Below are positions 41,481 through 41,975 of a stretch of DNA of 64,000 nucleotides, piece after piece. Made by a program: the position numbers and the translations under genes. The notes beneath the pieces are model-generated. The model did no database searches. It saw only the letters and a program-made list of their open reading frames with translations, and had not been told where the DNA came from. Origin of the DNA: Escherichia coli (GTDB lineage Bacteria; Pseudomonadota; Gammaproteobacteria; Enterobacterales; Enterobacteriaceae). Within the stretch, counting starts at the first letter, position 1, and every line of letters starts with the position of its first letter. Where the stretch lies: the NCBI RefSeq assembly GCF_016026235.1, contig NZ_CP065613.1. One strand, 5' to 3'.

Positions 41481-41511
41481 CTCGCTGATTAAAATACCAA
41501 AGGAAGGGAAT

Positions 41512-41661
41512 ATGATCGATCTGGAAAACCAGGAGCGGGAGATTATCAATTTAATGTTAAGCCAGCGTATTTCCTGGCTAGCCGCCGTGCGTATCAGGCA
41601 TAAATTATCGCTTGCTGAAGTAAGTAAAATGTTAGGTATCTCGATTAATTCTCTAAAATAG
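41512..41661 (+). CDS. Hypothetical 49-aa helix-turn-helix-like protein
   Basis: ATG at 41512 preceded by AGGAAGG Shine-Dalgarno; MIDLENQEREIINLMLSQRISWLAAVRIRHKLSLAEVSKMLGISINSLK; below the ORF-track threshold, read manually. Confidence 0.35.
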   Translation: MIDLENQEREIINLMLSQRISWLAAVRIRHKLSLAEVSKMLGISINSLK

Positions 41662-41975
41662 ATCGAAAAGACGGAACGGCTTAGCTCAAACATCAAAAGC
41701 AAAATGGGAGAAATTTATGGTTGTCCACCAGAGTTGCTGATATGCCCTTCCTGGATGACGGCTGAACATAAATGAATAGATTCGTGAATAGATACTTGAA
41801 TGTATTTTATTTTTTATCCATATGAAAAATAATAGTAAATCTATAAATCAGTTGCTATTGATGAATAGATACTAAAAAGCCGGAGCAGTCCCCTGAGGAA
41901 TCCCCAGAAAACAAGACAGGCATAGTGAGATGTGATCTAATTGATTGTGCTAACAATTTCAAGGAGATCACCACT

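Follow-up and report, generated by a model that had tools for sequence, protein, structure and literature searches.

What occupies the space between lplA and deoD in an Escherichia coli strain that lacks yjjJ, and where did it come from? The question arises from a 64,000-nt stretch of E. coli contig NZ_CP065613.1 (assembly GCF_016026235.1; this whole stretch is called the window below). An earlier reading made from the letters alone, here the sequence-only reading, stated that yjjJ, now named hipH, is missing between the two genes, and that the remaining gap holds a 49-codon open reading frame (ORF) resembling a helix-turn-helix (HTH) protein together with an AT-rich tract. The most probable explanation, in which we have good though not full confidence, is that the lplA-deoD interval is a dimorphic locus, and that the allele found here combines an antitoxin-derived HTH gene, cut by a nonsense mutation, with a relic of the hipH control region. 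The window locus is the common E. coli version of this interval, that is, a strain polymorphism with a pseudogene in it, and not a new system.

The hipH gene encodes an orphan kinase toxin of the HipA family with an N-terminal HTH (PMC8262856, PMC9948734, PMC11452175). The annotation of K-12 MG1655 agrees with the sequence-only reading that it lies between deoD and lplA, and it also provides the orientation: hipH (yjjJ; 1332 bp, 443 codons) is on the deoD strand and convergent with lplA, with the stop codons of both genes abutting. In the window the gene order is nadR, radA, serB (-), ytjB and lplA (+), a 412-bp segment, a composite of insertion sequences (IS) at 41893-43133, and deoD (-); neither blastn nor alignment against K-12 detected any hipH coding sequence in it. 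The gene is thus absent and the gap, estimated at about 410 bp, is real, but the implied loss in this particular strain is not. In 4034 of 5426 complete E. coli genomes the 412-bp segment aligns end to end, at an identity of 92-100% (100% in FDAARGOS_943 and 99% in Nissle 1917), and the allele without hipH is carried by the majority of complete genomes, with K-12 in the minority.

The HTH allele is present in those 4034 genomes and hipH in 1348. The two alleles appear mutually exclusive, because together they account for 5382 of the 5384 genomes that gave a match of any kind, and the genomes that match in part are those with hipH. A further 42 of the 5426 genomes match neither the HTH segment nor the tract shared by both alleles, and they may represent a third state of the interval, for example a deletion or a larger insertion. 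K-12 and ST131 (sequence type 131) carry hipH while ATCC 8739 and Nissle carry the HTH allele, and as we take K-12 to share its phylogroup with ATCC 8739, and ST131 with Nissle, both alleles presumably occur within single phylogroups. Outside E. coli, hipH is found in E. albertii and the HTH gene in E. marmotae and Escherichia sp. E1130. The allele-specific DNA, bounded by the lplA stop codon and the hipH ATG position, amounts to 286 bp with the HTH gene and to 1332 bp with hipH, and the two genes are read in opposite directions, hipH towards lplA and the HTH gene away from it. The 286 bp have no blastn match in the K-12 interval. Only 41767-41890 are shared between the alleles (positions 287-410 of the segment against K-12, 76% identity over 124 bp by blastn). 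In the literature searched by yjjJ and by RefSeq protein accessions the dimorphism is not mentioned; we found there no clean either/or choice between an orphan toxin gene and an apparently antitoxin-derived HTH gene at one putative operator tract.

The sequence-only reading was correct on the position of the small ORF, on its strong Shine-Dalgarno sequence (AAGGAAGGG at 41500-41508) and on its HTH character, but what it had described is the 5' part of an 87-codon gene that starts 31 nt past the lplA stop. The reading frame stays open for 37 codons beyond the TAG, to a TGA at 41773-41775, and these codons are intact, conserved and encode the remaining part of an Xre-type HTH domain. The gene is intact in most E. 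coli. The intact allele in Nissle 1917 is WP_000566155.1 in RefSeq, and the product encoded in the window differs from it by Gln50>stop and Ala67>Gly, the stop being made by a single C>T change at 41659. RefSeq flags the identical DNA of FDAARGOS_943 as an 'internal stop' pseudogene. The intact 87-aa protein matches Pfam HTH_3 (PF01381) with 29.6 bits (expectation value, E, 7e-7), above the gathering cutoff of 23 bits, while the 49-aa product reaches only 16.3 bits and stays below it. An AlphaFold2 model of the intact allele, built from a 45-sequence alignment with a predicted local distance difference test score (pLDDT) of 88.9, consists of an N-terminal helix (residues 4-18) followed by a five-helix Xre core (22-29, 34-41, 45-54, 59-69 and 73-76). 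In this model codon 50, where the stop occurs, belongs to the predicted recognition helix (residues 45-54), and helices 4 and 5 are lost. Because the stop lies in the middle of the recognition helix and leaves a product without half of the fold, the window copy is a pseudogene, and we take it to be non-functional. An exact match to a 61-bp probe centred on the TAG occurs in 1 of 3271 probe-matching complete genomes, namely FDAARGOS_943, and therefore the mutation is recent and lineage-specific.

This bears on two of the three interpretations that had been offered for the ORF. A functional stand-alone small regulator of 49 codons is scarcely credible: the strong Shine-Dalgarno, the ATG start and the presence of helices 1 and 2 with the start of helix 3 would suit it, but the ORF is the front half of a longer gene, interrupted in its recognition helix by a nonsense mutation and deprived of the two helices that complete the Xre hydrophobic core. 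Its HTH_3 score below the cutoff and the occurrence of the allele in a single genome argue in the same direction, as do the codons after the stop, which still encode the conserved rest of the domain. The possibility that the ORF is what remained of the N-terminal HTH of HipH after a deletion has practically nothing left to it and can be considered refuted. HipH does have such a domain (PMC8262856) and the ORF sits in the hipH slot, but it runs on the other strand with its start on the side of lplA, whereas hipH's N-terminus would be expected at the deoD side; BLASTP detected no similarity worth the name (best E 0.21 over 6 residues), and the absence of a blastn match for the 286 allele-specific bp points to the same conclusion.

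The third interpretation, spurious non-coding DNA that is open by chance, could appeal to the shortness and AT-richness of the ORF, its restriction to Escherichia and the frequency of disrupted copies. We consider it very improbable in view of the conservation of the 87-codon form, its full-length match above the HTH_3 cutoff, the confident AlphaFold2 fold, an excess of synonymous changes, and a specific similarity to an antitoxin family that includes an AEIYxCxPxxL motif. The excess is evident among seven intact alleles, in which 19 of the segregating changes are synonymous and 22 nonsynonymous, compared with 79% nonsynonymous expected under neutrality (binomial p = 2.5e-4). Pairwise ratios of nonsynonymous to synonymous divergence (dN/dS) are 0.11-0.55 for the HTH gene vs 0.01-0.09 for lplA and deoD. 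Judging from these alleles, the gene has evolved as a coding sequence under weak purifying selection (omega ~0.3).

Close homologues were confined to Escherichia and Shigella among the 5.8 billion proteins searched, and every time they were situated between lplA and deoD; the same position is kept in E. coli, Shigella, E. marmotae and Escherichia sp. E1130, a member of a cryptic Escherichia clade. Allelic variants, annotated as 'helix-turn-helix domain-containing protein' (WP_000566155.1, WP_000566246.1, WP_000566247.1 and WP_000566139.1), were located between these two genes in Nissle 1917, O157:H7, O26, ATCC 8739 and others, with 99% DNA identity. The same literature search returned no function or description of the 87-aa gene. 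Between E. coli strains with different HTH haplotypes (L002, L013, L015, L016, L018-L020) the synonymous divergence (dS) of lplA is very high, 0.12-0.44, and that of deoD 0.06-0.30, in a sample that is biased because the strains were picked for divergence; this suggests that haplotypes around the interval are old or were imported from other Escherichia clades. Two Logan contigs, L006 (SRR18740011) and L007 (SRR13921544), showed the same gene order with lplA and deoD ~71-73% and the HTH gene 81-82% identical. They were considered as divergent outgroups and set aside as corrupted or chemically converted reads, given this mismatch of identities and a called gene that could not be translated into the indexed query protein.

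How the intact gene would be expressed can be proposed from its surroundings. A promoter and terminator scan of 41200-42000 returned one weak promoter-like site, not above the shuffled expectation, and no terminator, and neither the promoter scan nor a repeat search found a palindromic operator or an above-chance sigma-70-like promoter upstream of the HTH ORF. As there is neither promoter nor terminator in between, the HTH gene probably ends the ytjB-lplA transcript as its last cistron, where it would be translated from its own strong ribosome-binding site. An Rfam scan of 41300-43300 on both strands (E <= 1) gave no match.

Structure comparison of the intact allele with Foldseek gave CylR2, C.BclI, P22 c2 and SinR as best matches in the PDB, with probability ~1.0 but E of only 0.04-0.1. 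Together with a PDB profile search it yielded generic Xre repressors only and discriminated no subfamily. Sequence comparison was more specific. With tblastn against plasmid and phage records we obtained 32-38% identity to proteins of 118-124 aa, with E from 5e-7 (the best, out of 7.3 Gb of plasmids) to 3e-3, and a pairwise comparison gave 36% identity over 74 aa (E 3e-15, residues 42-115 of 118). In these relatives the match covers the C-terminal ~75 residues with the HTH_3 domain, while the N-terminal ~45 residues are RelB/Phd-like. A PF05016 ParE_toxin gene lies directly upstream in six of the seven relative loci sampled (4/4 of those first examined and 2/3 of the further ones). The antitoxin family has at least 732 members, and all those among the best 120 listed are ~120 aa long. 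One full-length member of 125 aa was seen in an E. coli prophage (L027, GCA_900603255.1, positions 1381-1878) without a called toxin upstream; it lies ~120 bp past a DNA methylase gene and is apparently orphaned. We propose that the HTH gene goes back to a two-domain, ParE-paired antitoxin of phages and plasmids, of which it would be the C-terminal DNA-binding domain, the toxin-binding N-domain and the toxin having been lost. Without this domain and this toxin the intact protein could act only as a DNA-binding regulator, so that it would be at most a small dimeric regulator and not an antitoxin.

Aligned with the K-12 region, the segment has homology only in its AT-rich tract, which in K-12 is the tract upstream of hipH, a connection that had not been made in the sequence-only reading. 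The three motif copies noticed there are confirmed as exact TGAATAGAT at 41773, 41785 and 41862. The whole window contains four exact copies of TGAATAGAT vs 0.35 expected, and none of 100 shuffles reached four. Read in the sense of hipH, in which the motif becomes ATCTATTCA, the tract consists of the deoD terminator, one ATCTATTCA, a ~55-bp spacer, three ATCTATTCA at 12-bp spacing, TT(A/T) and ATG. All four repeats are in register in K-12, EC958, YJ4 and E. albertii, and the three proximal ones are perfect in them despite differing spacers. Repeat 3 is perfect in all four hipH haplotypes examined but degenerate in nine of the ten examined with the HTH allele (perfect in L005); E. marmotae has a mutated repeat 2 and L016 has lost it, and repeat 4 is mutated in EC19 and AVS0750. 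A 50-bp probe of the repeats is 100% identical in 1333 of the 1348 hipH genomes (98.9%), hipH itself varying between 95.9 and 100%, while the equivalent 50 bp in HTH-allele genomes have 1-2 mismatches to Nissle in ~2400 of them. Since the repeats are essentially invariant with hipH and drift without it, the tract is best read as a putative relic of the hipH promoter/operator which is now drifting, and which would have been left behind as the hipH coding sequence was replaced.

According to Reg-Seq, the yjjJ promoter of K-12 contains two repressor sites, one for MarA and one for an unidentified factor (PMC7567609), and the near-invariant ATCTATTCA repeats are a candidate for the second of them. 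It has also been reported that c-di-GMP (cyclic diguanylate) acts on hipH at its promoter (PMC11452175). In K-12 (L003 4234-4272) and E. albertii (L012 2965-3003) the repeats end 3 bp before the hipH start (ATCTATTCA-TTA-ATG), and no Shine-Dalgarno is recognisable at this start. In the window a 26-codon antisense ORF (25 aa and a stop; 41692-41769, minus strand) starts from the conserved hipH ATG position and lies inside the HTH gene; this ORF probably has no significance. RNA antisense to the HTH gene would arise if the relic promoter were still active.

The tract might on the other hand still be working in strains with the HTH allele, as a site for the 87-aa protein or for a host factor, or as an antisense promoter into the HTH gene. 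Repeats 1, 2 and 4 are perfect in the window and in many HTH-allele genomes, the distal copy forms part of an imperfect inverted repeat in the HTH-allele spacer (ATCTATAAATCA / TGATGAATAGAT, 83% complementary), and the repressor left unidentified by Reg-Seq at the yjjJ promoter (PMC7567609) could be counted in its favor. We nevertheless regard a working tract as rather unlikely, because the losses in repeats 2, 3 and 4 listed above are found with the HTH allele, and because over the 50 bp most genomes of this class differ from each other while the hipH class hardly varies. Furthermore, the tract lies downstream of the HTH gene and not upstream, and the operators of the related antitoxins look different: they are CTTATA..TATAAG palindromes upstream of parE, and no TGAATAGAT-like motifs were found upstream of the related parE-antitoxin operons.

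The order of events could also have been the reverse, with an ancestral HTH allele and hipH inserted later in some lineages, where it made use of pre-existing repeats. The HTH allele is the majority form (74%) and it is present in E. marmotae and the cryptic clade as well; an outgroup scan with HipH peptides returned only E. albertii, its exact-peptide patterns being too strict. We find this order unlikely, since the repeats end 3 bp before the hipH ATG (TTA or TTT followed by the ATG position common to both alleles) and are far more constrained with hipH than without it, as would fit a part of the hipH unit. The hipH of E. albertii carries the same four repeats, and the HTH gene looks like a truncated antitoxin fragment from a mobile element, as is typical of a secondary acquisition. 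A closer relationship, in which the antitoxin-derived 87-aa protein evolved to bind the ATCTATTCA operator or otherwise counteracts HipH, and the two functionally linked alleles form an ancient balanced either/or polymorphism across Escherichia species, is an improbable extension; were it true, the HTH allele would be an 'anti-addiction' state that permits the loss of hipH.

Several observations weigh against the relic and the descent proposed here. The direction of replacement, hipH first and the HTH gene second, is something we infer from repeat conservation only. Neither class shows variation in the repeat nearest to the HTH stop codon, and with repeats 1, 2 and 4 still perfect in the window some residual function of the tract is conceivable. 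Chromatin immunoprecipitation with exonuclease treatment (ChIP-exo) detected no DNA binding by YjjJ (PMC8464067). The link to ParE-paired antitoxins is drawn from ~35% identity in a very common fold, the residues of the recognition helix differ from those of the relatives, and no operator like theirs is present. Independent disruptions of the HTH gene are common (the nonsense mutation of the window, an IS inserted past codon ~57, a frameshift, a duplication within the gene and a deletion), and given their number and an omega of ~0.3 the gene appears dispensable and may be decaying everywhere. Its place as the last cistron of the lplA transcript is likewise inferred.

On the deoD side the segment ends in one half of a hairpin, the bidirectional terminator common to the deoCABD operon and the lplA side, which is parted from its other half by the IS composite. 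In Nissle the intact hairpin has a 12-bp stem (-26.1 kcal/mol, z -4.75), while the deoD-side remnant in the window folds no better than shuffled sequence, and the deo transcripts probably read into the IS remnant. The terminator can be reconstructed across the IS, as had been proposed, and once the IS is taken out, a 24-nt hairpin is regained that lines up with other strains. A 10-bp target duplication, GAGCAGTCCC, is found on both sides of the element (41883-41892 and 43134-43143). The outer element is an IS4-family ISEc60, whose central ~821 bp, present in FDAARGOS_943 (L001 3742-4562), are missing in the window, and an IS1 lies between its two remaining parts. As FDAARGOS_943 has an intact ISEc60 at the identical site, the comparison indicates that the window strain is a close relative of it which gained IS1 later. 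ISEc60 would have inserted first, splitting the deoD terminator, and IS1 would have hit ISEc60 afterwards. Coordinates of all features are collected in the table.

Table. Features of the lplA-deoD interval in the window, with the basis of each assignment
Feature	Position	Strand	Basis or remark
lplA (lipoate-protein ligase A)	40464..41480	+	ORF list; RefSeq, identical FDAARGOS_943 locus; variable interval bounded on the left by its stop codon
Shine-Dalgarno of the HTH gene, AAGGAAGGG	41500..41508	+	sequence
87-codon Xre-family HTH gene, pseudogene here	41512..41775	+	in-frame translation through the stop; RefSeq; Pfam HTH_3; AlphaFold2; omega ~0.3
49-codon ORF, truncated 5' part of the pseudogene	41512..41661	+	ORF list; in-frame translation
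Premature TAG (CAG>TAG, Gln50>stop)	41659..41661	+	alignment to Nissle; structure model
Putative relic hipH upstream (promoter/operator) region	41767..41878	-	blastn, 76% identity vs K-12; alignments; from hipH start position to deoD terminator
Position homologous to hipH ATG (CAT on +)	41767..41769	-	alignments; overlaps last HTH codons; right edge of allele-specific DNA
Repeat 1, TGAATAGAT (ATCTATTCA in hipH sense)	41773..41781	-	holds TGA stop of HTH gene
Repeat 2, TGAATAGAT	41785..41793	-	12 bp after repeat 1
Repeat 3, degenerate TGAATGTAT	41797..41805	-	alignments of haplotypes
Repeat 4 (distal), TGAATAGAT	41862..41870	-	abuts deoD terminator
Left half of deoD / lplA-side terminator hairpin	41879..41892		parted from right half by IS
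Left 329 bp of IS4-family ISEc60	41893..42221	+	100% identical to intact 1294-bp copy at the same site in FDAARGOS_943
IS1 (768 bp) inside ISEc60	42222..42989	-	sequence; ORF list; comparison with FDAARGOS_943
Right 144 bp of ISEc60	42990..43133	+	comparison with FDAARGOS_943
Second copy of 10-bp target duplication (43134-43143) and right terminator half	43134..43153		fold -9.2 kcal/mol, z -0.26
deoD (purine nucleoside phosphorylase)	43187..43906	-	ORF list; RefSeq annotation in FDAARGOS_943

In itself the window matters little, as it contains a dead copy of an uncharacterised accessory gene, what is probably a leftover control region and two nested insertion sequences. Of some wider use is that about three quarters of complete E. 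coli genomes lack hipH/yjjJ, a gene studied in K-12 and uropathogenic E. coli (UPEC) as an 'orphan toxin', and comparisons of hipH phenotypes between strains should account for this dimorphism.

Among known systems, the 87-aa protein is most like the ParE-paired two-domain antitoxins encoded in toxin-first order, such as WP_225988006.1 (Leclercia plasmid pZ96-1_2), WP_129941838.1 (a Serratia plasmid), BCI50128.1 (phage PPyecE_EH1910) and XYO02381.1 (Pasteurella phage Pmp14). We take the architecture of these relatives to resemble that of Vibrio cholerae HigA2, in which the N-terminus binds the toxin and an Xre HTH forms the C-terminal part. The likeness extends without gaps over the C-terminal 75 residues and includes the helix preceding the HTH as well as the AEIYxCxPxxL motif. 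The Escherichia protein differs in that it is without the ~45-residue RelB/Phd-like N-domain (the alignment begins at about residue 42 of the relatives), has a different recognition helix and ends in an extra 11-residue tail, and there is no toxin gene upstream of it but lplA instead. HipB of E. coli K-12, an Xre HTH protein of 88 aa, is similar in size and broad fold class, but there is no sequence alignment between the two: BLASTP gave none with K-12 HipB at E <= 100, NCBIfam NF007271 was not matched at E <= 0.01, and a HipB-like protein was rejected as a candidate. HipB itself is reported to rescue YjjJ toxicity (PMC9948734). The K-12 hipH locus, finally, shares with the window its place in the chromosome, the deoD terminator and an upstream tract containing four ATCTATTCA repeats, while its coding content, 1332 bp vs 286 bp of allele-specific DNA, is unrelated to that of the window and lies on the other strand.

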